Assembly (NCBI GenBank): GCA_000002435.2 | Contig: CM018789.1 | Origin: Giardia intestinalis | Lineage: Eukaryota | DNA: 64,000 nucleotides | Reading direction: 5' to 3' (one strand) | Shown: piece after piece, positions 3,983 to 61,215 of the stretch | Position numbering within the stretch: the stretch's first letter is position 1 | Layout: the number at the start of each line of letters is the position of its first letter | Position numbers and translations under genes: made by a program | The notes under the pieces: generated by a model | Database searches by the model: none | What the model was told of the DNA's origin: nothing | Seen by the model: the letters and a program-made list of their open reading frames with translations, nothing else

Positions 3983-6900
3983 TTACACGGAATACAGGTA
4001 TCGTACATCTGCCTTAAATACGTAGTCGAACTGTTGATAGTTCTTCTGTCCATTGTGAGTATACAGGACCCGATTGAAGTCCATCTCGCGGTCAATATAG
4101 ATTTTGATTTTTTTAGGTATGTAGGTCTCTGACAACCCTGCAGCTCTTATGGCGGCGGCTATATCTTCTAGTACAAAGCGTTCAACCGCTTGCGCCAGCG
4201 CTCTGGTGAAATTGGTCGGAGACACGACTGGCAGAAAGACTCTCATTAGATCATCTTCGTCCTTACCGTAGCGTTCGCACAGAAGCCCATCACGCGATGA
4301 GATCTTGCTACTGATGACGGAGGACATCGATTGGACAGACGGAGTAAGGCCCCGCTCAACGACGGCCACTTCTCCCTCTGAATCCAAGGTATCTTCGCAA
4401 CCTTTGATTCCAGAGGTCTCTAACACAACGTCATGGGAGGTGGCTCCCTTGAGCTTAATCTTCTGTTCTCTGTACCGGGCTTCTAGCAAATACTTCTTGC
4501 AGTTGATAATACATACTGTGTAGTTAGTATTGGGATTGGCAAACAGGCAACACGTTATTATGTATGGAATGCTCTCAATGATTCTGTTTGCTAGATCTCT
4601 GTCGAGAATCTGCTTGCCGAGCACAAGGTGTTTGTGGAGCGATCGCAAGTAGACCAGGCGTCCGTCCGGAAGAAGCTTGATTAAGTCCCCAGTATGGAAG
4701 TACCCGTCTGCATCAAAGATGTCATTAGCTTTAAAGAGATCACACTGCTTTTTCTGCGGACAGGAAAATGACCCTTGAAAGAGGGACAGTGAGGTATACC
4801 GCTTTGAGTATGCGTCTAAGAATGTATCAGTGGTGCAAGGTTCGGCATGCACAGGAAGGATATCTGCTGCGCTGGTGGACTCCTTGCCGAGAGGTGCAGG
4901 TACGCTCTTAAGCTCAGGCATTTCATCACTGATTATTGTATCTGGAGAACAAATGCCTTTCAGTACCACATTGAGAGGAACGTCTTGGTCGCAAAGTTCG
5001 TGGGACGTATCTCTAGAGGGCGATGTCGCAAGGGTATTGCTTTTTGGTTTTTCTGATGGCTGACTGGATCGTACAAAGCTCTGGTCCTTGACGCTCAGGG
5101 GAATTCCGCAGGCAGAGCCAGACAGTTTGTTGAGCTTCAGCTCGCTAATGGTTATGCTTTGGCGAACAGACGAGGCAGTTTGCGACATGAGTGGAGGGTT
5201 TAGTCGTAAATCTTCTACACTCATGCTAGAGAACTTAGAGAAGCCCGCAAGCCCTTGTTTATTGACTATGCTTGCAATTCCTAATTGTGCACCAGAAGAC
5301 GTGGGAGTGTCGTCGACAGAGCCAGGTTCTGGCCCAAACAGTGACGGTCTCTTGATAATGTCCTTAGAAATAGCCTGTGTATCTGCTGCGGCCAGAGCTG
5401 AGTTGGGTTCTGGAGACTCTTGGGCATCATTGTTATGGCTCGGCGATTGGGTCGAAGAAGCTACTGTTCTAATGGGCTTCAGCTGGCCGCTGTCATTAGA
5501 ATCTAACCGTGAATTTTCGGCATTAATAGCGTACAGCAAAGCAACGGCTATACTGTGCTGTCTCTCAGCCAGATTGGGGGCCTTGAAGAGACCCATATGC
5601 TCAACCTTTTTCTTTAGAATCTTGACAACACCCAGAGTTGACATCCTGAAGGGACTAGAGCAGAACTTGAACATGTGAGCGATCTTCCGGAAGAGGAGGG
5701 ATCCAGAGTAATTGCCCGCAACAGCCATTTTCCCCTTGAAACAAAGCTCACCAACCCCGTCTCTTTCCAATGAAAACTCACACCTCTCCTTGCAGTCCAT
5801 CACCACGCTGGAAATACCTGGCATGGATCTGCCCAGCAAACCTTCGTAGGACGGCAGGTCATGATAGTATGTGTAGCATCCCAGCCCCAGAAACTCTGAG
5901 ACCCCATAGACAGTTGAAAAGATACCCCCAGTGCCCACCCGAAAGAACTCAATGACCTTGTGCTGTAGCGGGCCGCCGATTGAAATGAAGTGAGTCGTAT
6001 TGCCTCCAAAGGCTTGAGCATTGATAAACCTTAGAGTTGAGGGGAGCTTTAACGTGCTCACCTGTGACTGGTAAAAAAGCGTCTTCAGGGATACCATTAG
6101 GGATTGCGATAGGCGACCATTTGCTTTCAATATTGGAGATAAAAACGCGTTGGCAAGGCGATGATGCTTGGCGATAATCCTTTCCGTGGTCTTGTAATAT
6201 GGTGTTAACCGATGATTTCTAAACGAAGAGAATGTGTCCAGTATCCTTTTGCAATCATCATTAGAGACTCGTTCGGGGACCACGCGGGAGGCCTTTATGA
6301 GCGCCTTTTGCGAGTGAGCAAACACCTTCTGGATCGCAAGCGCATGGGGGTCGTCGCTACTGGTTTGCGGCTTAGTATAATCCGCAGCAGCCAAGTCAAC
6401 GTTTAGATTGACAGTGAGAGGCCCGAAAGGACCAGAGGTCAGCTGATCAACTCCAACCTGATCCAGGAACATCGACTCCTGACAGATGCTGTCCATCTTA
6501 TCTGCACGTCGCTCGAGATCCTTCTCTATGCGGTCGACTTCCTTATTTCCCAGTTCAGTCAGATATGTCAGCCCCGCCTTGTAGATTCGTTGATATATCT
6601 GGCATGTTCCCACAAATAGCGTGCATTGACTGTCTCTCAGATCAAGCATAAATTGTCTGTCGATTCCGGATGAATAGTATATTTGGTAGCCTCTAATGTA
6701 TGCGAGATGCTCAAGAACCCTCTCAAAGGGCATGGAGAGAGGAAGATGGGAGAGAAAGGAGGGCTGGTGGTGGACAAACCCGGATGATTTGATTGACGGA
6801 CTTCCTGGCAGGATAACATCGGCTGTAAAGGCTCTCGTCCCGGATCCTCTGCCAACAAAGATATTGGTCAAATGCTTTGCTGAGTTTCCTGGGCTTTGCT

Positions 6901-8554
6901 TACTTGCTAGGTTTTGTGAGCCAGTCCTAGACTGCCCCTTTTTGTCCCGTTCGTGAGATGAAGAAGGTTGGTGCTTGTTTGCTTGAATAATGTCTGATGT
7001 TTCGGAAGCATCTGCAAAGGGGTTAATGTATGGATCACATGGGGAGCGCATATGCCCAGGAAGGTAGCCCAGTGCAAGTGATGTCATGGCCGAAATAAAC
7101 GCACCATAGGTGACCCCTAGTCCGACAATAGGCGGGGAAGGAGAACTAGACTTCTTATTAGATTTATACAGTATGCTGCAGATATCAGTGGCGCCGGCGC
7201 GCACGTCGTTCTGAGCAGTGTATTTAATGTGCTTCGTCTTCTGCATCAGGACATCTAGCGATATGATGTTCAGAGGCGTCTCGTCTTCTAGAAGATGCTT
7301 AAGTCCTGCCTGAGCTCCATTTAAGTTAGGGGTGTGCGCGGGGTCGTCGCTCTCGGGCTTATCGGAACAAGTTACCGCTGAGCTCTGCACTACAGCTGGT
7401 TCAGAATCTAGCAAACAATTTTCAATAGAGTTTGCATCCGATATGTGTGCACGCAGATACGATGAGATATCTATAAGATTCTTGTCGACAGTGTGTTCTA
7501 GGGTTCGTCGGTCGTGTTTGGTCGACGTTTGATTTAAGATGGCTGGAAAGGGTGCCATGCAAGCACTGAGCTTTCCGTTAGCAAAGCACGTAAAGACCCG
7601 TCCGTCACGTAAGTAGTAGGACCCAAGCCTATCCTCAAGGTGTGCCTGTGTCGAGACCTTACTGTTGCGAATTTCGTTTAGATATGATATACCGTCAATA
7701 GATAAGATATTAGAACTGGGGCTGGCAGGCGGATCCTCCAACTTGTCAACAACAGCAGAGGCCTCTTGGCAAGGGAGGGGAGAATTCCCTGTCCGCATCC
7801 CTTGTAACGGAGATGCTAGTGCGTGCGCGGAGGGAGATCCATCCGCAGAATTGAAAAACTCATCGTAGATCATCTGGTCTATGACGGACGTTGTGAGGAG
7901 TTCTTGTTCCAAGGTACCAAACACCATGGACGCAGCGTTGATCAAATTAGGGCTATCGGGAAGCGTATCCAACGATAATACAAGGCGGAGGTTGTCGCAG
8001 CGATGGGCAACGCCAAGAACCCGACTCACATACTGCTTCTGAGTTATGATGAGCTTCATTCCCGAGTGGAGGATGATGTATGCAAGCTTCTCATGGTTGC
8101 TCGTGGTTGGAACGGGAACAGTGACGGCGCCACGCGCCATAATGGCAAGATCTGAGATGAGCCAAAGGGGAGAGTTGGCTGCCATGAGCCCAACCATGTC
8201 TCCGCTCCTAATCCCCAGATACTGAAAGGCGGCAGTGACATGGTTGACCATGCGCTCTGCCTTAGCATAGGAAAGGTTGGTAAAGGGGGAAGGCGCGCTG
8301 ACAGCCTGTGTGCTCTCTTGACAAGTGTTGTCCCTGGGCCTTTCAGGAAGTGTTGTTGCTAGTCCATTACGAAAAAACATAAATGGGAGGTCAGAAAAGC
8401 GCGAGCACGCATCCCTGAACATCTCTATGAGGGATTGCTGCATTTTGGGTAAATAGCCTGCAGAGACGTGTGCATGCGATGCAGAGAGTAGATTGGCTGA
8501 TTGTGTGGCAAGATACTTTCTATTGCTGTTTGGAGTATATGATACAGTTAACAT
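3983..8554 (-). CDS. long-chain fatty-acid-CoA ligase (acyl-CoA synthetase, AMP-binding family) with large low-complexity insertions
   Basis: The N-terminus has the ACSL-type motif block YAKAERMVNHVTAAFQYLGIRSGDMVGLMAANSPLWLISDLAIMARGAVTVPVPTTSNHEKLAYIILHS. The C-terminus has YGVSEF (GYGxTE-like) and FHTGDLIKLLPDGRLVYLRSLHKHLVLGKQ (HTGD...DGxLxIxDRKK-like). The track start at 8560 is TTG; the first ATG is at 8554. Confidence 0.8.
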   Translation of the reverse strand: MLTVSYTPNSNRKYLATQSANLLSASHAHVSAGYLPKMQQSLIEMFRDACSRFSDLPFMFFRNGLATTLPERPRDNTCQESTQAVSAPSPFTNLSYAKAERMVNHVTAAFQYLGIRSGDMVGLMAANSPLWLISDLAIMARGAVTVPVPTTSNHEKLAYIILHSGMKLIITQKQYVSRVLGVAHRCDNLRLVLSLDTLPDSPNLINAASMVFGTLEQELLTTSVIDQMIYDEFFNSADGSPSAHALASPLQGMRTGNSPLPCQEASAVVDKLEDPPASPSSNILSIDGISYLNEIRNSKVSTQAHLEDRLGSYYLRDGRVFTCFANGKLSACMAPFPAILNQTSTKHDRRTLEHTVDKNLIDISSYLRAHISDANSIENCLLDSEPAVVQSSAVTCSDKPESDDPAHTPNLNGAQAGLKHLLEDETPLNIISLDVLMQKTKHIKYTAQNDVRAGATDICSILYKSNKKSSSPSPPIVGLGVTYGAFISAMTSLALGYLPGHMRSPCDPYINPFADASETSDIIQANKHQPSSSHERDKKGQSRTGSQNLASKQSPGNSAKHLTNIFVGRGSGTRAFTADVILPGSPSIKSSGFVHHQPSFLSHLPLSMPFERVLEHLAYIRGYQIYYSSGIDRQFMLDLRDSQCTLFVGTCQIYQRIYKAGLTYLTELGNKEVDRIEKDLERRADKMDSICQESMFLDQVGVDQLTSGPFGPLTVNLNVDLAAADYTKPQTSSDDPHALAIQKVFAHSQKALIKASRVVPERVSNDDCKRILDTFSSFRNHRLTPYYKTTERIIAKHHRLANAFLSPILKANGRLSQSLMVSLKTLFYQSQVSTLKLPSTLRFINAQAFGGNTTHFISIGGPLQHKVIEFFRVGTGGIFSTVYGVSEFLGLGCYTYYHDLPSYEGLLGRSMPGISSVVMDCKERCEFSLERDGVGELCFKGKMAVAGNYSGSLLFRKIAHMFKFCSSPFRMSTLGVVKILKKKVEHMGLFKAPNLAERQHSIAVALLYAINAENSRLDSNDSGQLKPIRTVASSTQSPSHNNDAQESPEPNSALAAADTQAISKDIIKRPSLFGPEPGSVDDTPTSSGAQLGIASIVNKQGLAGFSKFSSMSVEDLRLNPPLMSQTASSVRQSITISELKLNKLSGSACGIPLSVKDQSFVRSSQPSEKPKSNTLATSPSRDTSHELCDQDVPLNVVLKGICSPDTIISDEMPELKSVPAPLGKESTSAADILPVHAEPCTTDTFLDAYSKRYTSLSLFQGSFSCPQKKQCDLFKANDIFDADGYFHTGDLIKLLPDGRLVYLRSLHKHLVLGKQILDRDLANRIIESIPYIITCCLFANPNTNYTVCIINCKKYLLEARYREQKIKLKGATSHDVVLETSGIKGCEDTLDSEGEVAVVERGLTPSVQSMSSVISSKISSRDGLLCERYGKDEDDLMRVFLPVVSPTNFTRALAQAVERFVLEDIAAAIRAAGLSETYIPKKIKIYIDREMDFNRVLYTHNGQKNYQQFDYVFKADVRYLYSV

Positions 8555-8596
8555 AAACAATTGCTCTATTTTTGATTTACTGATGTGACTGTTTAT

Positions 8597-10981
8597 CTAC
8601 TTGCTGGCACTATCAAGGATGGACGCCGCAGCCTCTTGTTCTGCAACCTGTGCCACTTGAAGTGCAGTCTTGCCGGCGTTGTTCCGTAGGTCTTGCTCAG
8701 AGAGCAGGAGGCGGACGCAGGAGATGTTGTTCTTTGATGCAGCCCACATAAGAGCACACCATCCATTCCAGTCTCGAAGCGTGGTCTCATGCTCCGACAG
8801 TAACTTCACCCCCATAATATAGTCCATTTCGGCTGCACGCATAAGGGCTGTCAGTCCCTCCTTTGTCTGGATCCCGGCCTCTCGCTCTACAAGGAGAGAA
8901 GCGCAGTCGATATTCCTATTGTTGATGGCCATCATTAAGGCCGTGCCACAACTTTGGGAAACGAACCCTGGCAGCAAGCATCCTGCTTGGTCTAGATATT
9001 GGGCCACCAGATCAGGCCTATTTTGCTCGGCAGCCTCCATAAGCTGTGTTTTGTGCTCTACAACGCAGCTTGGTCTGCGAGGTGAGAGAGTTAAAGAGGC
9101 GCCGTGGGTCTTAGCATACGTTAAGACTGCCTTACGGTAAACGGTGTTCCCTGTCCGCGAGAGGTAGTCCAGGATATTGGTCCCATCCGATGCCAAAACC
9201 ATCCAAGTCTCATCTATGAGCAGATCGAAGACCCTACGGTTAGCAGTTTTAGCAGCAACCATCAGAGGGGTTAGTCCGTCCGCTGTGTGCCCTTTCCCTT
9301 CATGCGGAAGCAGAATCTTGACCATATTAACATCTTCCGCTCTCATAGCCTTGATTATAGCCATCTCTCCTCGCTCGTCATGTTGCTTGCATTCATGTGG
9401 AGCTAGTAGTTCAACTGCGTCTGCGTTGCTTTCCAGAACAGCGTACATAAGCGCAGTACGTCCGTGAATATCAGACCTTCGTGCCTGAAAAAGAAGGGTA
9501 TTGATTGCGGTCGTAAATCCAGTGATTGCTGCTAACATAAGCGCAGTCTTCCCGGACTCGGAAGAAGAAGGCTCACAGCTAGCAGCTGCGTCAGCGAGCT
9601 CAGCTAGGAAAGTTTCCTCCCTTTTGTGGACAGCCCACATGAGGACTGTTTCGCCTCCTGTCTCGGGGATCTTAGCATTCGTTTCCTCGAGCGCCAGTAT
9701 GCGTACACATTCGGCGCGATTATGACTGATGGCATACATAAGTGCACAATGGTTATCAGAACTGAAAACCCCTGTTTCTTGTGCTCCTGATTGGGAACCT
9801 GCTACTATCAAATAAGAAACAACGTTAGCACGGCCCGCCATGGCTGCATACATGAGTGCGGTCATTCCCTTCTCGTCCCGCAACTGGAGCTCGTGTGAAG
9901 CTAGAAGCTTGACGGCCTCCAGATGACCTCGCTCAGCAGCGAGCATAAGAGCAGTTCTACCATGCTTATTCTGAGATCTAGCGAAGCCAATGTGCAAGGA
10001 GACGGCACTTGTATCATTGAGCGCGGCGGCCTGCATCAGATCAGTGTCTCCATCAGTATACTCGTAAGGCTGGACTGGTGCAGCCAAGTGCGCTGTTGTT
10101 TTAAGATGGACCAGGCTTGATATCTTCTCTAGATGCTCACGCTTTTTGGTATCGTGCTCCAGACAACCTGACACTATTCTTATTAGCTGGCCGGAGAATC
10201 CTCTTTCAGATAGTAGCTTTGGTAGGTTGATAGCACCATCTGTTGTATACATCGAGCTCATAGCGGGCTTCATTGTCATGATCTTCAAGACCAAGGTTCC
10301 GATGTTCCACACAAGTCTTTCATCAAGGGAAGAACACGATATATGATTTGCTACCGGGGAGGGTACGTGGAACGGAAGTGAAAAATTATATTGCTCATGG
10401 TTGAGTAGAAGGTCCGACAAAGAATGGATTTGATAATCCATGTACTCACAAACAAGAACAGAAAGGGGTTTCCCCGGGTTCTCCCGTTCTAGGAGAAGGA
10501 CGTTATCAGGTGTGAAGAAAAGGGGCTCGTTCAAAGCACCCAATTTGCGGAGAGAATCAATGGCCGTCACAATTCCAGCTAAGATCTCCCAGACCTCAGA
10601 TTCGGAGAAGCTTGATCCCGTTGATCTGCGGCGAGATATTTCATCCGCTAGACTTCGGCCATGCTGCACCTCCTGGTAAATGAAGCCCTCCCGACCGTAC
10701 GATACTACGCTTCCGTGCAGAGCGAGACAACTGCCCGGCAGTTTAGGCAAACGAGCGCCTATGTCTGCAAGCCTTTCAAGGTTCATGACCAAACGTCCGC
10801 GGGCCTCTAATGAAAGCTCAGCTACATCGTACTCCAGTATGTTAACGGGGCTTCCTGTCTTCAGTGAGACCGCAGAGTAGAGTCTACGGGTAATGACCTC
10901 TGGACCGTGGATCTGTACTCCCTGTAATTCACTACTAAGCTGAACGTTAGTATACTTTTCCGCGATGACACCCAGGTGCAT
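8597..10981 (-). CDS. NEK-like kinase-fold (probably catalytically dead) plus ankyrin-repeat protein, 794 aa
   Basis: The N-terminal ~230 aa has kinase-like architecture but no HRD or DFG. The rest is repeated ankyrin units (GRTALMLAAERGHLEAVKLL, GMTALMYAAMAGRANVVSYL and similar). ATG verified. Confidence 0.7.
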   Translation of the reverse strand: MHLGVIAEKYTNVQLSSELQGVQIHGPEVITRRLYSAVSLKTGSPVNILEYDVAELSLEARGRLVMNLERLADIGARLPKLPGSCLALHGSVVSYGREGFIYQEVQHGRSLADEISRRRSTGSSFSESEVWEILAGIVTAIDSLRKLGALNEPLFFTPDNVLLLERENPGKPLSVLVCEYMDYQIHSLSDLLLNHEQYNFSLPFHVPSPVANHISCSSLDERLVWNIGTLVLKIMTMKPAMSSMYTTDGAINLPKLLSERGFSGQLIRIVSGCLEHDTKKREHLEKISSLVHLKTTAHLAAPVQPYEYTDGDTDLMQAAALNDTSAVSLHIGFARSQNKHGRTALMLAAERGHLEAVKLLASHELQLRDEKGMTALMYAAMAGRANVVSYLIVAGSQSGAQETGVFSSDNHCALMYAISHNRAECVRILALEETNAKIPETGGETVLMWAVHKREETFLAELADAAASCEPSSSESGKTALMLAAITGFTTAINTLLFQARRSDIHGRTALMYAVLESNADAVELLAPHECKQHDERGEMAIIKAMRAEDVNMVKILLPHEGKGHTADGLTPLMVAAKTANRRVFDLLIDETWMVLASDGTNILDYLSRTGNTVYRKAVLTYAKTHGASLTLSPRRPSCVVEHKTQLMEAAEQNRPDLVAQYLDQAGCLLPGFVSQSCGTALMMAINNRNIDCASLLVEREAGIQTKEGLTALMRAAEMDYIMGVKLLSEHETTLRDWNGWCALMWAASKNNISCVRLLLSEQDLRNNAGKTALQVAQVAEQEAAASILDSASK

Positions 10982-11043
10982 TTTAAAATTGAAACGATAA
11001 CGGTGTGCAGTGTTGACATACCACCGGTAGCTTTGCCGTACCG

Positions 11044-11436
11044 TTAGACCGGCGGGGCTTGCTGAGGCTCGATTGTCCTCCTTGGCTCGGAGCGGCCACC
11101 GTCATCGGGACTGTCTTTGGCATGAATCACCAACAGTGCTCCAAAAACAATGCTCCAGATCCACGGAACAAATAGCCACATGAGAAAGAACTGGATTGCA
11201 GCAATGATAAGTAGGTTACAGCGGTTTCTGTGGGCAGAACTCAGACATGCTGAAAGTGCTGTCCCTAGCCCCGAGACTATTATGTTGCAGATGAGAAGCA
11301 GCACGGCGACGCAGATGGTGGTCCTTGGGGTGTGTCCTTGGAAGATGTATGTCCAGAGGGGAATCTGCTCATCGTCGAGGGACTTGGCGGGGGCTCCCTC
11401 GGCAGGCGGGTGTTGCGTAGGTTGCGCGTCAGGCAT
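11044..11436 (-). CDS. small two-TM membrane protein (130 aa), paralogue of 16206-16709
   Basis: Two hydrophobic helices. Shares the blocks LLICNIIVSGLGTALSAC and IIAAIQFFLMWLFVPWIWSIVFGALLVIHAK with ILFCNIVLPGIGTMFSAI and SIGLLQFFGAPLIFPYCWALFYGAQLISHSK of the upstream paralogue. ATG verified. Confidence 0.45.
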   Translation of the reverse strand: MPDAQPTQHPPAEGAPAKSLDDEQIPLWTYIFQGHTPRTTICVAVLLLICNIIVSGLGTALSACLSSAHRNRCNLLIIAAIQFFLMWLFVPWIWSIVFGALLVIHAKDSPDDGGRSEPRRTIEPQQAPPV

Positions 11437-11509
11437 TTTTATTCTCCATGGTACAAAGCTTCGAGGGATGCGAATTGTCTGAAGGCGGGTTTATCTACCT
11501 TAGTAATCT

Positions 11510-14500
11510 TTAGTTCTTTGTAAAAATAAATGACGGGGTCAAGGGACGAAGCGAAGAAGGCCTCTGGGCCTCCCTGATTACCAGAGAGGCAGATACACCG
11601 GGGAGAGAGGGAGAAGGAGTGTGTATAGACATCCTGTTTGTGTGGATCAATGACGTGGATGCACTTCGTCTATTTGAAAGTTTTATTCCAACGCTACCAG
11701 TGGCCAGCTCTTCTCTGATATTGCTTCTCCCAATGGATATATCTATATGTTGTGATAATACCGCCATAATCTTTGCGTCCTGTATGGCTGAGACGAACTC
11801 CTTTGTCAGCAGCCGACTTTCCCTTGCAGCCAGAAGCGATATTGATTTAATATCACGACGATCCAGTGCAAATGCCAATGCACAATCGCCATCTAAGTTT
11901 AGACGCCCGGCTTCATCACATAAAAGCGCTGCGCTTGTGGACTGAGAGTGCTTTGTTGCCCACATGAGAGCAGTATTTCCACTGCGATCAGACATTCCTT
12001 TCTGCGTCGAATAGTAGAGGCTTGCAAGGGGCAGGTTTCCCATTCCCGCGGCAACCATGAGGGGCGTCAGTCCGTTCTTATCGCAAATAGTCGTACTGAC
12101 GCCTGCTGTTTGCTGCACCAGTATTCTGCATATGTCCTCACGCTGTGTGCAAGTGGCGATGAGCAACGGGCTTGGAAAGTCAAATGCCCAGATCCCGCTG
12201 CTCCATTTTCCGACAAACGATATGGAGTGCTCAAGAGGAGCCAGCATAGCAACCATGTTAACAATTCCCTTTTCGATGGCAATGATCAGTGCTGTCCTGC
12301 CCGTGGGATCTGTGGCTCCGGCCTCGTGAAGAAGCTCCTCTGCCAATGCTTGGTCGTTATTCATCACAGCCTTGTGCAATTCTGTTACTCCACTTTCGGA
12401 CCTTATCGCCGGTTTTATCAGTGACGCGATTTCGGAAAGTCCCAGCTCTGTTGCCAGTTTCCAAGGCAGAGTCTCTCCAACAGTTATGCTAGCCTCTATC
12501 CGGAGCAACTTAATTACGTCTATATCTCCCAGCTTTATGGCGAGTGTTAGAGCGGAATACATTCCACGGTAGACAGCTTGGCAGAAACAGATGTTTTCCT
12601 TGACCAGCTCCAAGTCTTTGTTCACAACAGCAGCCATCAAGGGCGTGAAGCCTCTACGTGATATTCTTTCCAACTCTTCCTTGCAGCATAGTAAAGCTGC
12701 TGCAGCTCTATATTCGTCTTTATCCAGAGCATAGTCTGTTGCTACCAGGCCTGCTAAATCCTGCAATCCGCCCTCTGTGTCCATTAGCAAGTTAATCGCA
12801 TCTATGTTTCCTGCTGCTGCAGCCAGCATTAGGGCCGTTTGGCCTTGAGCATTTCTTCTGCGCGCAAGGTGCATGCACATTCGCATACCTTCCAGGTTGC
12901 CATTGATGGCCTCGACGTGCAGCTGTGTGTGTCCGTCTTCGTCTTCGAACGCTGGGTGAAGGACGTATTGCTTGAGTAGGATAGTGGCCTCTTCTAATTG
13001 CTCAGCTGCCTTTATAAATCTTGACGGGTTAGGGTGTCTATGAATGAGCTGTCTGATAAGCTCGGTGTTTTTGTCCGCACTTACTTTGGAGGGACGAAGG
13101 AGTGCTTTGAAAAGCGCTAAGTCACCGTCCCAGTCGCTAGCCATAGATGGCTCTAGAAGTGCTAAGCTCAGGAGTCCATTTGAATAACAGGGAAACTCAT
13201 GCCGCAAAGTTAGGGTAGCCCCCTCGAGAAAATCGTTGTCCAAAGCAATGTCGGTTGCTAGTTCTCCTGCAGAACTGACAAGGCAAGACTCGAGCGGAGC
13301 AAGGACTGCAACAATGTGCTTGTATTTATATTTCATAGCATACATCAGTGCGGTCCAGCCTGTATAATCCTGTTGACGGGCCTCTAAAAGGAATTTAATC
13401 GCTCCACTTATATCGCCTGAGATGGTGGCAATCATTAGATTAGTATATCCACAGGAAAGAAGAGCCTTTGTCTCAAATGGAGAGATAAGCCGGAACGTCT
13501 CAAGGTGGCCTTCTTTCAAAGCAAGCATCGAGGCGCAACATCCATACTTTTCAGTATTCTCAGTGCTTACAATCCCCCCTTCTAGTGTCAGCAAATCTTG
13601 GTCAATATCATTGAGTCCAAAGCTTGCCGCCAGCATCAGTGCAGTGTGACCATCATTGTTCTTCACTCCGTGGCAATGTAAAACCGCGAGAAGGTCGGCT
13701 CTTTTCCGAGTCATGCTACCATTTTGTGCACAGAATCGTATATATGTATGCAGTGGAGTCTCTCCCTTGGAGTCAACGTCGTACGTCGGTCGCAAGATCA
13801 TGCAAAGATCGGGGCTCTGCACCTTGTACGCCAAATACCATGCAGTCACCCCATCTTCTGTGATGAGATCCCGCTCCATCAGCAGAAGCTTGACACAGTC
13901 TTCGTCCCCAGTATTGACCGCATACATTAGGGCAGTCCACCCCTTGCTGTCGCGAGCGTTAGCTTGGTTGATATAAAGCCATACCAACCCGGGGCGTTTT
14001 TCGGCGGCAGCAATCATCAACTGCGTCATATCAGGGGGATACTTCTCTGCATTGGGAACAGCCAACTCATATTCAGCAATAGCCTCTGCAATATTGAGGG
14101 ACCCACTTAGGACAGCAAAATCAATTGCACTGAGACAACGGTTTCCTGTGGTGACTGCGAGTCCAGCCTCTAGTGATGCTAGTAGCACCGCACACTCCAG
14201 ACTTCCGTGCATCGATGCGTGCATCAAGGCCGTGAATCCATCATTATCCACCAGGCCTACTTGTCCTAGGTGGCAGAACACCATAAAAGGATCGCCGTTC
14301 AATGCCCCGATCATCAGGTTAGTCCTTCCACACTTGTCCGGCGGTGATGTAACTACGTGCTCAGGGAGCAGAAGGTGCTTTGCCAGCTCAAGATTTCCCA
14401 TGTGGAACGCTATCTCAGCAGCAGAAATGCCTGGAGCAAGGAGTCGGGACGGGATATCCTTGGAACTGCTTGGCGTTAACTTCTCTGCAGGAGCCCCAGA

Positions 14501-16195
14501 GAGAACGCTTTTTTCATACTCTAACAGCAGCAGAGCCATCTCCTCTCGTCCATGAAGGCAGCTCTGATGAAGCGCCGTGTGTCCATTATGGTCTCTTTCT
14601 CCGGCCTCGTAGTTTCTGAGGAGGCAAACAATTTCTTTGTGTTTGAGTGCAGCTGCAAGCATAAGGGCGGTATAATCGTCATTATTTTTCTTTCTGGCCA
14701 GGGAGAGGAACAACCTAGTGCCCACTGTGTCGCCTCCCATGACAGCGCGGTGCAGCTGAGTGTTTCCATCAGAATCCACGACGGGGCTCTGCTCTAGGAC
14801 GGTGAGAGCATCCATAAAGCCACTGTCTCGAGCCAGCTGCCACGGGGTGATACCAGAAGAAATGCAAATATCTTTTTCTGTCGAGAGAAGCTTAACACAG
14901 GTAAGGCTTTTGGAGGCTATTGCATACGCCAAGGCAGTGTTGCCAAGTGTGTCTACCCGTCCAGCTTGCCCTAAGTTTAGGTAGACACCAATAATGTCGT
15001 TATTACGCACGCTCTCAACTAGCGTGTCAGGAGCCTTGGGGATATCTCCGCTGTACGATAACAGTAGACGAATGATAGAGTTCGGATAGGTGCGTGATAT
15101 TCCAATAGATACTGGCAGTTCTCCGGCTGCATTTTTGACAGCTCCCTCTTGTGGAGCGAGTATCCTTATAATTTGTGCTAGTACGAACTCCTCAAAGGCA
15201 GCATATGAGCAAGAGGAGTCAGTCCCAGGCTTCGGGGTTTGAAACGTCGATCTCATCATTGCATAATGGAGCGCAGTATTTCCTGTAATCGAATGTACCT
15301 CTCCACACTCAAACGGGGCCAGAATTCTTACTACAGCAAGAGAAAGCCTCTTAGCCGCCATCATCAAGGCCGTGTTGCCGGTCTCATTGGTGCTTTTAGC
15401 AAACACTGCACCCAGTTCCTGTACCACAGCGAGATTATCCGTTTCAACAGCTCTGAAGAAGTCAGCCTGGGTAGATGATATGGAACATATGCTCTGCGTG
15501 TGTGGGTTCTCGTCCATGGAAGAAAACTCAGCCACAAGCCTATCTTGAAATGTGCTAAGGGACTGGTTATTAGTATACATTAGTAAGCACTGAATTAAGC
15601 TTGCTATACGCGAGCTGCATGACAGTCTACTACTGAGGTCAGAGGCTGCCAATTCAGCGCTCAGACATGGATATTCTCCAGCGTACGATCTATAAATCGC
15701 TGCACCAAGTCCACGGACAGCAGGCACGACGGAGGATAAATTGTGGTCCTCCTCTGGCACCAAGAGGAGTTCAATGTCTCCAAGAAATGGGATTTCCCCT
15801 GCCCTGTAGAAGACATTACTGCATTGAATCGTGGATAAATAAAGCCCAGCCGATGACAAACGCTCAATGGCTAGCAGAATAGAAAACGCCACGTTGGCTA
15901 CATCCAAGTCTGAGATCAAATTCTTTAGGACACCGCCCGAATGACATATGTTTTCGAGCGTGAGATGGTCACTTTCCAGTGCATAGAGTCTGATCACGTC
16001 TCCTTGAAACACGATCTTTCGTAACTTTAAAACATCACATTCCAGCGTGTTTCGTGCTGCGTTGAGTCGATCGAGGGCGCGTCTCAGGATGGGACTGACT
16101 TGAGCTTCTTGGTGAGCTGCTGCCGCGTTTTCTTTTGGGGGCGCCAACTCTTCTGATTTGCTCATTAAATCCTGATTTTCAGTTTGTGTTCGCAT
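11510..16195 (-). CDS. ankyrin-repeat protein ('protein 21.1'-like) with degenerate N-terminal kinase-like domain, 1561 aa
   Basis: More than 25 ankyrin repeats (GNTALMMAAKRLSLAVVRIL, GWTALMYAVNTGDEDCVKLL and similar). The N-terminal ~200 aa is kinase-like without catalytic motifs. ATG verified at 16193-16195. Confidence 0.75.
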   Translation of the reverse strand: MRTQTENQDLMSKSEELAPPKENAAAAHQEAQVSPILRRALDRLNAARNTLECDVLKLRKIVFQGDVIRLYALESDHLTLENICHSGGVLKNLISDLDVANVAFSILLAIERLSSAGLYLSTIQCSNVFYRAGEIPFLGDIELLLVPEEDHNLSSVVPAVRGLGAAIYRSYAGEYPCLSAELAASDLSSRLSCSSRIASLIQCLLMYTNNQSLSTFQDRLVAEFSSMDENPHTQSICSISSTQADFFRAVETDNLAVVQELGAVFAKSTNETGNTALMMAAKRLSLAVVRILAPFECGEVHSITGNTALHYAMMRSTFQTPKPGTDSSCSYAAFEEFVLAQIIRILAPQEGAVKNAAGELPVSIGISRTYPNSIIRLLLSYSGDIPKAPDTLVESVRNNDIIGVYLNLGQAGRVDTLGNTALAYAIASKSLTCVKLLSTEKDICISSGITPWQLARDSGFMDALTVLEQSPVVDSDGNTQLHRAVMGGDTVGTRLFLSLARKKNNDDYTALMLAAALKHKEIVCLLRNYEAGERDHNGHTALHQSCLHGREEMALLLLEYEKSVLSGAPAEKLTPSSSKDIPSRLLAPGISAAEIAFHMGNLELAKHLLLPEHVVTSPPDKCGRTNLMIGALNGDPFMVFCHLGQVGLVDNDGFTALMHASMHGSLECAVLLASLEAGLAVTTGNRCLSAIDFAVLSGSLNIAEAIAEYELAVPNAEKYPPDMTQLMIAAAEKRPGLVWLYINQANARDSKGWTALMYAVNTGDEDCVKLLLMERDLITEDGVTAWYLAYKVQSPDLCMILRPTYDVDSKGETPLHTYIRFCAQNGSMTRKRADLLAVLHCHGVKNNDGHTALMLAASFGLNDIDQDLLTLEGGIVSTENTEKYGCCASMLALKEGHLETFRLISPFETKALLSCGYTNLMIATISGDISGAIKFLLEARQQDYTGWTALMYAMKYKYKHIVAVLAPLESCLVSSAGELATDIALDNDFLEGATLTLRHEFPCYSNGLLSLALLEPSMASDWDGDLALFKALLRPSKVSADKNTELIRQLIHRHPNPSRFIKAAEQLEEATILLKQYVLHPAFEDEDGHTQLHVEAINGNLEGMRMCMHLARRRNAQGQTALMLAAAAGNIDAINLLMDTEGGLQDLAGLVATDYALDKDEYRAAAALLCCKEELERISRRGFTPLMAAVVNKDLELVKENICFCQAVYRGMYSALTLAIKLGDIDVIKLLRIEASITVGETLPWKLATELGLSEIASLIKPAIRSESGVTELHKAVMNNDQALAEELLHEAGATDPTGRTALIIAIEKGIVNMVAMLAPLEHSISFVGKWSSGIWAFDFPSPLLIATCTQREDICRILVQQTAGVSTTICDKNGLTPLMVAAGMGNLPLASLYYSTQKGMSDRSGNTALMWATKHSQSTSAALLCDEAGRLNLDGDCALAFALDRRDIKSISLLAARESRLLTKEFVSAIQDAKIMAVLSQHIDISIGRSNIREELATGSVGIKLSNRRSASTSLIHTNRMSIHTPSPSLPGVSASLVIREAQRPSSLRPLTPSFIFTKN

Positions 16196-16205
16196 TTACT
16201 CTAGA

Positions 16206-16709
16206 CTAGTACATTGGAACTGGGAATTGGTGGATCGAGCGAACGTGGTGGCCGTCTGAATCGGGGGAATTTGTTGTGCTCTGCGTGGAGGGAGTGTCCG
16301 GTGTGGGTAGATCGCCCGATGCCCTCATAGCCGCAAGCCGTCGAAGCTGGTCTTCTACCTGGTGCATCTTGGAGTGTGATATTAGCTGTGCACCATAAAA
16401 TAGGGCCCAGCAATAGGGGAAGATAAGGGGTGCGCCAAAGAACTGTAGAAGGCCTATGGAGAGTATTGTCCGTCGGTTGGCCTTGGCCGACGGGGCTATC
16501 GCCGAAAACATCGTCCCAATCCCTGGGAGCACTATGTTGCAGAATAGGATCGTCACAGCTGCGCCAATGGGAAGAACCGGGGTTGCTCCCGCTTTGACAT
16601 ATGAGACAAAGGACATGGGCTCGCACTCCTTGCACAGGGGCCCTTTTGTTACTGGCTTATCATGTGCAAGAGATATCGTTTCGTCGCTCAGACACACAGG
16701 AGAGCTCAT
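16206..16709 (-). CDS. small two-TM membrane protein (167 aa from first ATG), paralogue of 11044-11436
   Basis: The track start at 16733 is TTG; the first ATG is at 16709. Two TM helices with the conserved paralogue blocks. Its stop lies 10 bp from the ATG of the downstream ankyrin gene. Confidence 0.45.
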   Translation of the reverse strand: MSSPVCLSDETISLAHDKPVTKGPLCKECEPMSFVSYVKAGATPVLPIGAAVTILFCNIVLPGIGTMFSAIAPSAKANRRTILSIGLLQFFGAPLIFPYCWALFYGAQLISHSKMHQVEDQLRRLAAMRASGDLPTPDTPSTQSTTNSPDSDGHHVRSIHQFPVPMY

Positions 16710-16865
16710 TTTTGTTCTAGAGGTACTAACCAACTAATGATTTGTGAATGGCTTGTTAGTAGAGCTAGTATCTTCACAGCTCACACCCAGAAAGCATGCC
16801 AGCTTTTGCCATACTTGTCAAGTTCCTTTCAGCCCATTTAGCGCACGGTGCACGCGCTGAAAAAA

Positions 16866-17870
16866 ATGTTCTTCGATATTCTCTTTGTAAATACAAGCAC
16901 AGGGATACTTCAGTATCACCACCGAGTCAACACGTTCTTTACTGATTCCCCAATGAAGCCCCATAGTCTGTGCATGATTCTCAGGTCTATAACCCAAGCA
17001 TCCATGGAAGTCTTTAAGCAAGCTCTTCTGTACATGGAGCTCAGCTCTGCCGCCATATCGATTTATGATGCCCAGCCAATTACCTGCATTGTTATTCATG
17101 AAATCTTCGACAGAGATTGCTACGGCTCCATACTCTCTGAGGCGTTTGTCAGTCTCTATAAGAACGTAATACAGAATTCGTTTACGCGGACGCAGCATAT
17201 GAACCCCCCGATAGCCCAATCGCATGTCACTTCAAAATTATTAGAATATATGCAGTTAGCCCTCTCGATTGTCCTGGACAGAATTTGCTGCATGAAGTAT
17301 ACTGCGTCGTGCTATGTTATGATTCTTGACCACCCTTATTCTCCCGTCTTTCCGCCTGGAATGATCATGGGGAGGACTAAGCACCTTCCTCCCAGGCCAA
17401 ACTTCGCTGAACTGAACTCGAAAGCAATAGAAACCAATATCAGCAACCTCATTGATCAAATTAACGAAGCGCTAGAGGTCATCTTTGCCTCGTCGGACGG
17501 TGGATCCGTAGCAGATAACCCTAACAATAAGCTCAGCTCCCGTCTTTCTACCTTCGAATTATGCTACGACATGTCCTTCCGGATTCGCGTCACTAACGTT
17601 TTCCCCGGTGCATACGTTGTGCTCATGCAGAATAAGCGAACGCGGCAATACAGTTCTCTGCACCAGGACAATGCAACAATGTCTATCATGACTCAGGAAT
17701 CTGCGCTAGAGCTATCTGCGCAGGCATCAACCCTCACTGCAACCCCCTTTCACGGGAAGTCCGGCACCGCTAAGTTCGAGAAAAACAAGTTCATGGTGAG
17801 CCAGTTGACGCATGCTATCGCCCGCATCTTTGACAGCGCACATCAGATACGGCAACGGAATAGCACCTAG
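16866..17870 (+). CDS. hypothetical protein (~335 aa); start uncertain
   Basis: 1-kb ORF whose track start is GTG; the first ATG is near 16866. A 135-aa antisense ORF (16818-17225) overlaps its 5' third and is a competing model. Confidence 0.35.
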   Translation: MFFDILFVNTSTGILQYHHRVNTFFTDSPMKPHSLCMILRSITQASMEVFKQALLYMELSSAAISIYDAQPITCIVIHEIFDRDCYGSILSEAFVSLYKNVIQNSFTRTQHMNPPIAQSHVTSKLLEYMQLALSIVLDRICCMKYTASCYVMILDHPYSPVFPPGMIMGRTKHLPPRPNFAELNSKAIETNISNLIDQINEALEVIFASSDGGSVADNPNNKLSSRLSTFELCYDMSFRIRVTNVFPGAYVVLMQNKRTRQYSSLHQDNATMSIMTQESALELSAQASTLTATPFHGKSGTAKFEKNKFMVSQLTHAIARIFDSAHQIRQRNST

Positions 17871-26624: not shown

Positions 26625-27977
26625 CTAGTGGAACAAGGCTGTATATGCGCTCAAGGAAGGCGATTTCTTGTCATAGAGGCATGCTATGGCTCGTTTCCAC
26701 TGAGAAGTCTCCTCGATAAAGGCTGCATTCTGACCCTCATCTAACCCACTATTTTCACTAGCCTCTTCGCTTTCTTCGCTTTCCTGATTAGACTTTTTGA
26801 CTGCTAGTAGCTCATCTATTTTACTGATGAGTCTGTCTGCGCGTTCCTTGTACTCTGCAAGATATTGTCCTGTGGGGAGGTTCTTAGATCCGTGATCAGA
26901 GTATCTCATGTGGGCCAGAATTAGGATTGCTTTTCTGATGCTTGCTACCAGCTCCCGTGAAGGTCTAACTGCTGATTGCGGTAGATCCACGATTGCGTCC
27001 ACGATAAGCATTATCTTCTTATTAACTCCTGCCCTACTCAGCTCTGTTGTAAAGGAGTCGCTGAGTCTATCATTGCTCTTAAAAAGGGAACATATGTATG
27101 TGAAGACGGTGGCGTACGGTTGGAGAACAAACGGCTCCTCTTCCGGAATTGAAAGTAAGATAGACAAGGCATCACAGAAGAGGTTCATCTTAATTATGTT
27201 TTTGTAATTCTCATACAGGACAGCAAGGTAGGCGATGATGTCTCCTGCTCTTCTCATCCGCTCGGTGTCACTCATGATTCTGGTCAGCGAGATAACGAAC
27301 GGCTTAAGAAACAAGTCTGATGCCAGCAGGGCGATGCAGCATCTTTGAGGATCGGATGGAGACAGGGAAGAGAAAAGTATGCTGGGCTGCAGGATGGCTG
27401 TGTACGAAAAGAGGCTCCGCAGCTGCTCGATTGTTTGAAGTGTGAAAGGTGTCTGAATCGCGAATGTCAAAATCACATAGATGTCATGGTAGCTTGTGAA
27501 CTCTCTCTGCTTGCGGACGTTTAGGATTTTTGTGAGCAAGTCGACGGGGTTCTTGGATATTTCGGCGCAGGTAGGAGCCTTTGTCTGATTGGTCAGTTCG
27601 AAGAAATTCCCGTTATAGAAATCGCTCAGCTGTGCAGTGTCCTTTGGAAGCGCTACCCTGGGCAGAGAAAAGAGGTACTGCTCCAAAGCCGTTTTGATCT
27701 CAGGGGATATGTTGCTGAGCCAGGAAATAGGGAAGCGGGGGGCATAGCCTGCCATTACCGACTGCTTCGTCAGTTTGCGCTTCTTCTTTGGCGCAGATTC
27801 CTCGTTGGTAGGGTCTGCGGTGTTCTGCTCAAGGAAGGACTGTTTGCCGCGTGGCTCTAAAAATAAGGTGCCGTTCACGTCGTAGCCACTCACCAATATG
27901 GTTTTCTGCCAGAGGGGCGCGCCATCATGAACGTAGCCGGCGGGAAGCTCAGCGGGTGGAAAGTAAAGGGCCTGCAT
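26625..27977 (-). CDS. hypothetical protein (~450 aa from ATG 27977; the track ORF extends to a GTG at 28163)
   Basis: Long ORF. The first ATG on the minus strand is at 27977, 14 bp from the ATG of the divergent nucleotidyltransferase gene. Contains a KKKRK basic patch. No domain assigned. Confidence 0.45.
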   Translation of the reverse strand: MQALYFPPAELPAGYVHDGAPLWQKTILVSGYDVNGTLFLEPRGKQSFLEQNTADPTNEESAPKKKRKLTKQSVMAGYAPRFPISWLSNISPEIKTALEQYLFSLPRVALPKDTAQLSDFYNGNFFELTNQTKAPTCAEISKNPVDLLTKILNVRKQREFTSYHDIYVILTFAIQTPFTLQTIEQLRSLFSYTAILQPSILFSSLSPSDPQRCCIALLASDLFLKPFVISLTRIMSDTERMRRAGDIIAYLAVLYENYKNIIKMNLFCDALSILLSIPEEEPFVLQPYATVFTYICSLFKSNDRLSDSFTTELSRAGVNKKIMLIVDAIVDLPQSAVRPSRELVASIRKAILILAHMRYSDHGSKNLPTGQYLAEYKERADRLISKIDELLAVKKSNQESEESEEASENSGLDEGQNAAFIEETSQWKRAIACLYDKKSPSLSAYTALFH

Positions 27978-27991
27978 GCTGTAAAATACTA
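27978..27991. promoter_or_regulatory. putative AT-rich bidirectional initiator region between divergent ATGs
   Basis: The 14 bp gctgtaaaatacta lie between ATG 27977 (minus strand) and ATG 27992 (plus strand). Giardia promoters are short AT-rich elements next to the start codon. This is inferred only. Confidence 0.25.
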
Positions 27992-42931: not shown

Positions 42932-43002
42932 CGTTCACAGATTATACTGGGATCTAAAGTGAACGTAAGACATACATTGTGGTCAAGAGCCTCAGTGAAA
43001 AA

Positions 43003-44070
43003 ATGCCCTTTCCTGGTCTATTCCGTAATAGCAATTATCCCGGAGAATACGCCCATCTAGCGCAGGATGCGGAGGCTGTTCTCAACGACAAAGCATATGA
43101 TTCCTTCAACCTCGTCTCGCAGCACAATTTAACCCCTCACACTTCTTTGACTACTATGCTCACGACTTCCCACAGAGGCCCGCCGAAAATCACTGAATCT
43201 CTCAGCATCGCTAGGCCACGTGGCTCTTTCCGAGGGTCTGTTGATTCTCAGGGAACATTAAGTGGGTCCTACACGACGTCCATTTTGCCTGGGCCCCGGT
43301 ACCGTAACGCCGCGCGTCTACGCCTATTAGGTGATGTGCACTCCTTCAGTGCAGAGAAGTCAAAGAAGGTCATGGCAACCGGCCGTGCCGAGCTCCACGT
43401 CGAAGGAGGAGACTACTCGCTCTCCGGTCTCTATAGCCTCCCAGGACACATCATAGCGGGCTCATACTTACAGGGATTTGGAGACAGGATAGCTGTGGGG
43501 TGTGAGATTGTGCGGCCTCCGCAAACGGATCCCTCTGTCAAGCCGGGTACCTCACCTATTGCCATGGCGGCAGGGGGAATCCGTTACACTAATATCAGCC
43601 GTGAGCGTAGTTCCGATCCAGGGATAATAGCCACGGCCCAGGTGAACACGGAGAAGACCGCGAATGCTTCCCTGCTTGCCCAGCTCTCTGGAGAGCTTGC
43701 TGTCGCAGCTTCTGTCAACGCGGACTTCTGTGGCTTCAGGTCTCCAGAACAAAAAGATGTCACAAAAGATCGCTCGGCCCTGTCAGGCCTTCTCAATGGC
43801 TTGAAGAAGACGCGTCTATCTGCATCATGTGGATTTACTAAACTGTTAAAAAGCTCGCAGGTTACGGTGAACTGCAACACGTACGGAGAGGTGTGCTGCG
43901 ACGTGCGGCATGCAATGCAGGATGGCACGGTTGCGGAGGTCATCGGGAGTCTCGACATTTTCTCAGGCCGCACGACCGTTGGGGTGGGCCTTGTGTTGTC
44001 AGAGCAGGCGCTCCCTCGCTTTATTCACAAGGCGGTTCGGAAGGCCAACTCTTCGAGCAATCACAAGTAA
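43003..44070 (+). CDS. hypothetical protein, candidate mitosomal outer-membrane beta-barrel (Tom40/porin-3-like)
   Basis: The track start is GTG; the first ATG is at 43003. The N-terminus SNYPGEYAHLAQDAEAV resembles the Tom40 NPGxxExLH segment. The remainder alternates hydrophobic/polar residues as beta strands (LHVEGGDYSLSGLYSLPGHIIAGSYL, TTVGVGLVLSE). The assignment is tentative. Confidence 0.45.
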   Translation: MPFPGLFRNSNYPGEYAHLAQDAEAVLNDKAYDSFNLVSQHNLTPHTSLTTMLTTSHRGPPKITESLSIARPRGSFRGSVDSQGTLSGSYTTSILPGPRYRNAARLRLLGDVHSFSAEKSKKVMATGRAELHVEGGDYSLSGLYSLPGHIIAGSYLQGFGDRIAVGCEIVRPPQTDPSVKPGTSPIAMAAGGIRYTNISRERSSDPGIIATAQVNTEKTANASLLAQLSGELAVAASVNADFCGFRSPEQKDVTKDRSALSGLLNGLKKTRLSASCGFTKLLKSSQVTVNCNTYGEVCCDVRHAMQDGTVAEVIGSLDIFSGRTTVGVGLVLSEQALPRFIHKAVRKANSSSNHK

Positions 44071-47232: not shown

Positions 47233-47294
47233 AATTCTTTGATGCATGGATGAGTGGGGACCAGGTATGTAGTTGACTGACGCTTTGCAAGTAG

Positions 47295-61153: not shown

Positions 61154-61215
61154 CTACTTGCAAAGCGTCAGTCAACTACATACCTGGTCCCCACTCATCC
61201 ATGCATCAAAGAATT

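Follow-up and report, generated by a model that had tools for sequence, protein, structure and literature searches.

This locus raises the question of whether a two-gene cassette, a small two-pass membrane protein gene followed by a gene for a pseudokinase/ankyrin protein, was duplicated in tandem, and whether the repeated order means that the two proteins function together, as the sequence-only reading of this DNA had proposed. The window, by which we mean the whole 64,000-nucleotide stretch that was analysed, is a piece of a Giardia intestinalis WB chromosome; exact cluster matches gave both the organism and the gene names. The four minus-strand open reading frames of the proposed cassettes were found where that reading had placed them, and each of them already has an annotation under a known family in the Giardia reference genome (Table 1). 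TM-A corresponds to XP_001707851 (GL50803_7374, inferred from the DHA2_7374 tag), and the annotated start of Ank-B is the second ATG (16165), which gives a protein of 1551 aa. Two of the approximately 30 genes in the window encode ankyrin proteins, and both of them lie directly 3' of a Spec3 gene and on the same strand. The gap between TM-B and Ank-B is 10 nt (40 nt to the annotated start), and that between TM-A and Ank-A is 62 nt.

Table 1. Features of the Spec3-ankyrin region, in window coordinates
Feature	Position	Strand	Length or residues	Basis
TM-B, Spec3/Stum two-pass membrane protein, B-type paralogue	16206..16709	-	167 aa	Pfam, exact cluster, synteny, hydrophobicity
Ank-B, TALM-ankyrin repeat protein (Protein 21.1 / ARP-1)	11510..16195	-	1561 aa	Ank_2, TALM motifs, orthologue
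TM-A, Spec3/Stum two-pass membrane protein, A-type paralogue	11044..11436	-	130 aa	Pfam, annotation, hydrophobicity
Ank-A, TALM-ankyrin repeat protein (ARP-1; UniProt A8BC91)	8597..10981	-	794 aa	Ank_2, annotation, TALM motifs
Ank-B N-terminal region, probable degenerate kinase-like remnant, mostly C-lobe	15461..16108	-	about aa 30-245	Profile matches
Ank-A N-terminal region, probable pseudokinase-like domain	10082..10981	-	aa 1-300	Profile matches, published InterPro match
Divergently transcribed gene, synteny anchor for the ancestral Spec3 position	16866..17870	+	about 335 aa	Homologues beside Spec3 elsewhere

The proposed paralogy of the two small proteins was confirmed. BLASTP aligned TM-A and TM-B with 34 of 85 residues identical (40%, E=4e-20), and the sequence blocks that had been quoted as common to both are present. 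Their family, which the sequence-only reading did not recognise, is Pfam PF15795, Spec3 (the Stum family), and the proteins are already annotated as such. TM-A scored 30.1 bits and TM-B 32.6 bits against this model, both over the gathering threshold of 27. In support of this assignment, the reference annotation of the two genes is 'Spec3 membrane protein', the exact 167-aa cluster for TM-B (P0035) bears the same name, and the orthologue clusters of the small proteins carry a precomputed PF15795 assignment.

Kyte-Doolittle profiles gave two hydrophobic segments in each protein (residues 36-66 and 72-107 in TM-A, 41-72 and 82-100 in TM-B), and two hydrophobic helices are a trait of this eukaryote-wide family, to which sea-urchin SPEC3, Drosophila Stum and human STUM also belong. 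When 13 Spec3 homologues were aligned, N51, G56, G58, T59, Q82, W94 and G99 were invariant; the first helix carries the family's N-x4-G-x-G-T signature and the second its Q...W...G, and these residues are common to the Giardia proteins and to their homologues from Dysnectes, Willaertia, Blastocystis, a gregarine and a mollusc. Note that the Giardia proteins (130-167 aa) are hardly more than the bare domain, whereas animal Stum and SPEC3 have long N-terminal regions. A profile of TM-A and TM-B matched 461 cluster representatives at E<=0.001; a profile search with 13 Spec3 sequences missed several of its own queries, the G. muris protein included, and the Spec3 genes considered here for G. muris and WB are a minimum set. 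The evidence that ties the Spec3/Stum family to cilia and mechanosensation is all from animals. Literature searches for functional work on Giardia Spec3, for the gene or protein accessions, or for Spec3 together with cilia found none.

How old is the duplication of the Spec3 genes? In the Spec3 tree, bootstrap support is 100% for clade B, which holds sequences from WB, a divergent Giardia and G. muris, and 82.5% for the grouping of clade A with the outgroup protein P0042. In the family core TM-A is 35% identical to TM-B and 39-54% identical to other Spec3 paralogues, and the A- and B-types are each conserved at 74-85% identity in the divergent Giardia. [quoted passage not shown] TM-A and TM-B are probably the products of an old local duplication, before the two Giardia species separated, of a Spec3 gene beside this conserved 340-aa gene.

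We followed the ankyrin neighbours through the same genomes. The divergent Giardia keeps the four-gene order, with 69-85% amino acid identity. At this locus G. muris has one pair only, TM-B and Ank-B, in the order 340-aa gene(-), Spec3-B(+), Ank-B orthologue(+), Sec23(-), and its Spec3-B is the TM-B orthologue (P0043) at the syntenic position. The AMP-binding gene of G. muris is on the other side, which places TM-A and Ank-A exactly at a rearrangement breakpoint. The search for further Spec3-ankyrin pairs recovered both pairs in the divergent Giardia but the B pair alone in G. muris, and it confirmed no ankyrin gene directly beside the other Spec3 paralogues examined, a third one of Giardia and the four of the outgroup. 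No ankyrin gene adjoins the third Giardia paralogue (P0047) or the outgroup paralogues P0042 and P0044, and none lies downstream of P0042, the positional orthologue beside the 340-aa gene; for the outgroup paralogue P0048, an ankyrin gene is found two genes away. Downstream of outgroup P0046, and on its strand, lies a gene for a 566-aa protein faintly similar to the Ank-A repeats (BLASTP, E=0.001). A home-made TALM-repeat HMM gave this protein 8.1 bits, where 200 shuffles reached 3.9 at most; we treat this as a hint, and neither Pfam nor PDB searches found ankyrin repeats in the protein. The gene that comes next after it is a weak AMP-binding homologue, which echoes the WB order TM-A, Ank-A, AMP-binding.

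Both downstream proteins do contain many ankyrin repeats, as had been read from the sequence: Ank_2 matched Ank-A at E=1.1e-67 and Ank-B at E=4.8e-95, the latter over 16 stretches, and Ank-family models were the only Pfam domains in either. Exact TALM motifs number six in Ank-A and eight in Ank-B. The annotation names Ank-A 'Ankyrin repeat protein 1' and Ank-B 'Protein 21.1' / 'Ankyrin repeat protein 1'. Like the Protein 21.1 / ARP-1 proteins and the NEK pseudokinases (Manning et al. 2011, PMC3218828; Xu et al. 2020, PMC7000408), both have TALM ankyrin arrays after an N-region that resembles a decayed kinase; unlike NEK, they have no kinase domain at any Pfam threshold, which by the annotation rule makes them ARP-1. 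Ank-B has a full-length orthologue in G. muris, with 38-40% identity across about 1400-1500 aa. The similarity between Ank-A and Ank-B is of the generic ankyrin-repeat kind only (26-28%). Among the few ankyrin proteins of the loci compared, an unlinked Giardia ARP matched Ank-A better (124 bits) than Ank-B did (72 bits). With the Ank-A N-domain as query, a database search yielded one orthologue fragment and no paralogues.

The claim that both proteins begin with a degenerate kinase-like domain was confirmed weakly. Neither N-domain had a Pfam match, even at E<=10. Profile searches of the PDB returned kinases only: Myt1, PERK and TAO3 for Ank-B, in the register of alphaE, catalytic loop and DFG (E=0.11-1.7), and CASK and MKK7 for Ank-A, collinear and weak (E=1.7-2). 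Using hhalign against a small, hand-typed alignment of three kinases, we obtained collinear alignments, at P=4.7e-4 for Ank-B across kinase columns 35-284 and at P=0.01 for Ank-A across columns 5-286. In these low-confidence alignments the VAIK Lys of Ank-A is replaced by Leu, HRD by LFF and DFG by EYM; in Ank-B, HRD is replaced by LST and the DFG-type Asp is kept. By the same alignments, the active-kinase residues K72, D166 and D184 are not all present in either protein. The Asn and the DFG-type Asp of the Ank-B N-region are conserved in G. muris. AlphaFold2 models of the N-domains, made from the window sequences and one homologue, were unusable (mean pLDDT of 38.0 for Ank-A and 35.7 for Ank-B).

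Published data point the same way. Ank-A (A8BC91) has an InterPro kinase-like match (IPR011009) at residues 59-313, and it was left out of the 2025 kinome because its model had no N-lobe (PMC12538575). The N-terminal regions of Ank-A and Ank-B are plausibly dead (NEK-type) kinase remnants, in agreement with Manning et al. 2011 on Protein 21.1 (PMC3218828). Both ankyrin proteins share one plan, a kinase-like remnant and then TALM repeats, a point against the explanation favoured below.

The tandem duplication of a two-gene cassette, the central claim of the sequence-only reading, found no support in these comparisons. DNA-level repeats between the two halves of the region are short ones only and fall mostly at TALM-motif codons. 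The N-domains of Ank-A and Ank-B had no similarity in a pairwise BLASTP alignment (E=1.8), and hhalign gave them a probability of 1.7%. Nor are the copies each other's closest relatives among the sequences compared: TM-A is closer to other Spec3 paralogues, and Ank-A is nearer to an unlinked ARP. Of the two gene pairs, sequence comparison demonstrates paralogy for the Spec3 genes alone.

On balance, the repeated Spec3-ankyrin order seems to result from inherited synteny, ankyrin-gene density and breakpoints rather than from a duplicated functional cassette. The B pair would have inherited its order through local synteny, the A pair would reflect the tendency of ankyrin/NEK genes toward rearrangement breakpoints, and the very high density of these genes in Giardia would also favour the arrangement. 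In WB, 489 of the 4963 genes belong to the ankyrin/NEK group (PMC7000408), about 10%, and rearrangements and duplications in G. muris often involve these families (PMC7641422). Under random placement the chance of the double adjacency is roughly 0.1 x 0.1 = 1%, for a pattern that was noticed post hoc. A Spec3 gene upstream of an ankyrin gene is an ordinary arrangement in Giardia. As it stands, the locus has little significance, since its families are known and its order can be explained by the Spec3 duplication together with the abundance of ankyrin genes. The Spec3 and ARP-1 proteins would then act separately. Sea-urchin Spec3 and Drosophila Stum suggest by analogy that TM-A and TM-B would be small proteins integral to a membrane, which may be that of the flagella or the plasma membrane. 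The ARP-1 proteins may serve as cytoskeletal scaffolds that lack catalytic activity and are targeted by their ankyrin repeats, a role put forward for this family (PMC3218828).

An older history, possible and in our estimate rather unlikely, is that an ancestral pair of Spec3 and ankyrin/pseudokinase genes was tandemly duplicated before the Giardia species split, that the ankyrin copies diverged beyond recognition, that the A pair was lost or relocated in G. muris, and that the order reflects a functional partnership, for instance with Spec3 as a membrane anchor that recruits an ankyrin scaffold. Order, strand and tight spacing are alike in the A and B pairs, and their double adjacency would seldom arise by chance (about 1%). 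The B pair is conserved as far as G. muris; however, this is expected from general local synteny, which is kept for 3043 orthologues (PMC7641422). A kinase-like remnant and TALM repeats occur in both ankyrin genes, and in the hhalign comparison of the N-domains their alphaE-like helices are matched to each other (P=0.029), whereas specific similarity between Ank-A and Ank-B is absent, Ank-A is nearer to the unlinked ARP, and the two proteins differ two-fold in length. The absence of specific similarity leaves room for co-duplication, because fast-evolving ankyrin genes could have lost it since the Spec3 split. The faint ankyrin-like gene behind outgroup P0046 also argues for an ancestral pair, but outgroup P0042 and the third Giardia paralogue have no adjoining ankyrin gene.

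A further idea, which we consider improbable, is an old diplomonad module that joins membrane to microtubules, in which Spec3/Stum proteins would physically interact with TALM-ankyrin pseudokinase scaffolds and whose gene linkage is left only in Giardia. The coupling of a membrane anchor to a scaffold, as suggested in the sequence-only reading, is speculation. The presence of a Stum-family membrane protein and a long ankyrin protein from a microtubule-localising Giardia family may recall the NompC/TRPN ankyrin spring on microtubules, although in Giardia the membrane and ankyrin parts are separate genes and have no known channel domain. The resemblance to the NompC/TRPN tether is a works-like analogy only. 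If such a module existed, it would provide the first candidate binding partner for Stum, which is needed for animal mechanosensation, and a defined membrane receptor for one among the hundreds of orphan ankyrin proteins in Giardia. A functional pairing would open a tractable route into two poorly understood families, Spec3/Stum and the roughly 490 Giardia ankyrin/NEK proteins, and would be a rare eukaryotic case of conserved functional gene linkage.

That each Spec3 gene is co-transcribed with its downstream ankyrin gene in an operon-like unit is very unlikely, although the gaps are very short (10-62 bases). A poly(A)-signal-like AGTAAAT, which we take to match the AGTRAAY consensus, is found 6 nt past the TM-B stop codon. 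Moreover, the A-rich initiator typical of Giardia precedes each ATG (PMC7000408), and short spacing is normal in Giardia, with a median intergenic distance of 37 bp in G. muris (PMC7641422). The ankyrin genes would be independently transcribed, tens of bases downstream of the Spec3 genes.

Finally, the possibility that a DNA segment bearing both genes was recently duplicated in tandem, for which the repeated gene order alone could be cited, was rejected as next to impossible: there is no DNA repeat apart from those at TALM codons, the TM proteins are just 35-40% identical, the B-type has its own G. muris orthologue, and both types are separately conserved (74-85%) in the divergent Giardia.

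The segment belongs to a chromosome of Giardia intestinalis (syn. duodenalis, lamblia) WB / ATCC 50803, with a GC content of ~49% and tightly packed genes without introns. ORF calls placed four minus-strand genes exactly where the sequence-only reading had located them: two small membrane proteins, TM-B and TM-A, each followed by an ankyrin gene, Ank-B and Ank-A respectively. Exact-sequence look-up revealed that 3/4 of the proteins, and a neighbouring hypothetical protein, are exact WB RefSeq/GenBank entries, while the fourth, TM-B, corresponds to cluster P0035 when translated from its ATG. The gaps between the genes (10-73 nt) are normal for Giardia, and an A-rich initiator precedes each ATG. 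Note that an AGTAAAT (16194-16200, minus), similar to the AGTRAAY poly(A) signal of Giardia, is found 6 nt beyond the stop codon of TM-B, where it shares bases with the first in-frame ATG of Ank-B. The overlap speaks for a start at the second ATG (16165), as in the current annotation (1551 aa).

Features of the locus and of the remaining window, with one comparison gene
Feature	Coordinates	Strand	Description
TM-B	16709-16206	minus	ORF, 167 aa
Ank-B	16195-11510	minus	ORF, 1561 aa
TM-A	11436-11044	minus	ORF, 130 aa
Ank-A	10981-8597	minus	ORF, 794 aa
AMP-binding (acyl-CoA-synthetase-like) gene	3983-8560		unusually long, ~1525 aa
363-aa protein	42979-44070		eukaryotic-porin match below threshold (26.4 bits vs cutoff 28.4)
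RIB43A flagellar protofilament-ribbon homologue	44089-45285		clear match, E=2.7e-47; adjoins 363-aa protein gene
Identical convergent VSP genes	50794-52899; 55549-57654	plus; minus	in inverted repeat; PF03302, E=1.7e-204
P0047, third Spec3 paralogue type	L007 4431-4871 (Logan ERR3333378, Giardia assembly)		146 aa

Pairwise BLASTP bore out the proposal that the two small proteins are paralogues (34/85 identical, E=4e-20). Their family, which had not been recognised from the sequence, is a known one: Pfam PF15795 ('Spec3, ectodermal ciliogenesis protein') matches both above its 27-bit gathering threshold (TM-A 30.1 bits, TM-B 32.6 bits), and the 2020 reference annotation already lists both genes as 'Spec3 membrane protein'. 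Two hydrophobic segments occur in each protein; N51, G56, G58 and T59 in the first and Q82, W94 and G99 in the second are invariant in 13 homologues. A TM-A and TM-B profile retrieved 461 relatives (E<=0.001) from 1.84 billion cluster representatives, the named ones belonging to G. muris, Dysnectes, Willaertia, Blastocystis, a gregarine and a mollusc ('Protein SPEC3'). The family is that of sea-urchin SPEC3 and of Drosophila Stum, which is needed for proprioceptive mechanosensing. A literature search on the Giardia Spec3 members found no paper.

As comparison we used SRR31929897 (Logan), from a Giardia-like organism whose genome is compact (GC 53-57%; contigs L003, L005, L006, L009); the 340-aa gene that neighbours TM-B places this organism as an outgroup to WB and G. 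muris. In the Spec3-core tree, TM-B grouped with orthologues from divergent Giardia and G. muris (100% bootstrap), whereas the clade of TM-A contains its orthologue plus an outgroup protein (82.5%). The further Giardia paralogue P0047 falls in a third clade, where it groups with outgroup P0044 (100% bootstrap). TM-A is 35% identical to TM-B, versus 39-54% to other paralogues. The A/B split is therefore older than the G. muris / G. intestinalis divergence.

As expected, both downstream genes encode multiple ankyrin repeats (Ank_2, E=1e-67 for Ank-A and 5e-95 for Ank-B). They contain 6 and 8 exact TALM motifs, respectively, a Giardia-specific repeat type (Manning et al. 2011, PMC3218828), and are annotated as Protein 21.1 / ankyrin repeat protein 1. 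The degenerate kinase-like domain proposed ahead of the repeats stood in part. Pfam searches of both N-domains gave zero matches even at E<=10, but PDB searches (single-sequence and profile) returned almost exclusively protein kinases, in proper register, with E values of only 0.1-2: CASK (beta3 to catalytic loop) and MKK7 (alphaH-alphaI) for Ank-A, and Myt1, PERK and TAO3, across alphaE, the catalytic loop and DFG, for Ank-B. Using hhalign against a small hand-entered alignment of three kinases (CDK2, PKA and NEK2), both N-domains aligned collinearly over nearly the full domain (Ank-A, P=0.01, kinase columns 5-286; Ank-B, P=4.7e-4, columns 35-284). In these alignments the HRD motif is gone from both and the VAIK lysine also from Ank-A; Ank-B retains the Asn and the DFG-type Asp, both invariant in G. 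muris. AF2 gave no usable model of either N-domain (pLDDT 38 and 36). A re-annotation of the kinome published in 2025 lists an InterPro kinase-like match in Ank-A (A8BC91, residues 59-313) but left the protein out because its predicted structure has no N-lobe (PMC12538575), and cryptic kinase domains in 21.1 proteins were already noted by Manning et al. (PMC3218828). Several weak signals and these published hints thus make a decayed kinase domain plausible rather than rigorously demonstrated, in keeping with existing knowledge.

The four genes had been read as a tandemly duplicated two-gene cassette, which the comparisons do not support; they speak against a recent event. The two N-domains showed no similarity by pairwise BLASTP (E=1.8), and hhalign joined a single alphaE-like helix only (1.7% probability, P=0.029). 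Identity between the two ankyrin regions is 26-28% (72 bits); Ank-A is nearer to an unlinked ankyrin protein encoded on another of the Giardia contigs compared (124 bits, with 31% identity over 474 aa). DNA comparison of the two halves revealed no larger repeat between them, and most short repeats fall at TALM-motif codons. Co-duplication is therefore without positive support.

Next, we compared gene order. The same four genes occur in the same order in a divergent Giardia lineage (Logan ERR3333381, ERR3333382; GC 41%, 69-85% protein identity to WB). In G. muris the order is PP-loop ATPase, X, 340-aa gene (-), Spec3-B (+), a full-length Ank-B orthologue (1491 aa, 38-40% identity) and, on the opposite strand, Sec23. 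The AMP-binding gene follows Ank-A in WB, and its G. muris counterpart lies on the opposite side, beside the PP-loop gene. Gene order thus puts TM-A/Ank-A (8597-11436) exactly at a rearrangement breakpoint, which fits the published association of synteny breaks and rearrangements with these gene families (PMC7000408; PMC7641422). Compared with G. muris contig L004 (1493-5428, 14934-17732), the stretch that runs from the PP-loop gene to Ank-B has the opposite orientation; in G. muris Sec23 comes directly after Ank-B.

Beyond these conserved pairs (both in divergent Giardia, the B pair in G. muris), the pairing did not extend to P0047, P0042 or P0044. The P0047 locus has no adjoining ankyrin gene; an ARP is found five genes upstream, and a TALM-rich ankyrin gene is present on the contig. 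The outgroup encodes four or more Spec3 paralogues. P0042 adjoins the 340-aa gene homologue and is the positional orthologue of TM-B, yet is A-like in sequence; the gene after it is convergent (1910 aa) and has no ankyrin repeats. P0044 has no ankyrin neighbour at its locus. P0046 comes after the orthologue of window gene 27851-30187, and the gene after it encodes a 566-aa protein showing only a faint ankyrin-like signal, with a weak AMP-binding homologue next in line; near P0048 an ankyrin gene lies two genes off, on the other strand. The synteny of two outgroup Spec3 loci with parts of the WB region suggests that the paralogues go back to an old local duplication of Spec3 alone.

We lean slightly towards there being no cassette, the adjacency reflecting synteny and family density. 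Most probably the locus holds two anciently diverged Spec3/Stum membrane-protein genes, each beside an ARP-1 gene that is transcribed independently. Inherited synteny is enough to account for one of the two adjacencies; local synteny is kept for 3043 orthologues between two Giardia species (PMC7641422). WB has 184 NEK, 267 ARP-1, 33 ARP-2 and 5 ARP-3 genes, 489/4963 or 9.9% in all (PMC7000408). The chance of both downstream neighbours of two given genes being NEK/ARP is ~1%, low yet not compelling for a pattern spotted post hoc. The strongest point for the cassette idea is that Ank-A and Ank-B, both Spec3 neighbours, are the only two ankyrin genes among ~30 in the window. This would suit an ancient co-duplication of a Spec3-ankyrin pair, with possible functional coupling, which the dissimilar N-domains and the nearer unlinked relative of Ank-A render rather unlikely. 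A recent duplication, contradicted by the DNA comparison, or operon-like co-transcription is very unlikely.

The existing annotation already covers both families and the four genes themselves; the gene-order observation alone is new, and it is weakly supported. A membrane-to-cytoskeleton module formed by the pair is improbable; it would be moderately interesting because, to our knowledge, Stum has no known partner and the Giardia ankyrin proteins no known receptors.

Elsewhere in the window, large low-complexity inserts split the Pfam domain of the AMP-binding gene, whose G. muris orthologue (1282 aa) aligns in three separate blocks. The 363-aa protein may be a mitosomal Tom40-like porin. Finally, a perfect inverted repeat of 7,310 nt (46064-53373 / 55075-62384, 100% complementary), with a GC-rich (0.57-0.59) spacer of 1,701 nt, matches the inverted VSP pairs tabulated as a class (PMC7000408); besides the VSP genes, it contains identical genes for a 304-aa protein, which has a weak PTB/IRS-type match.
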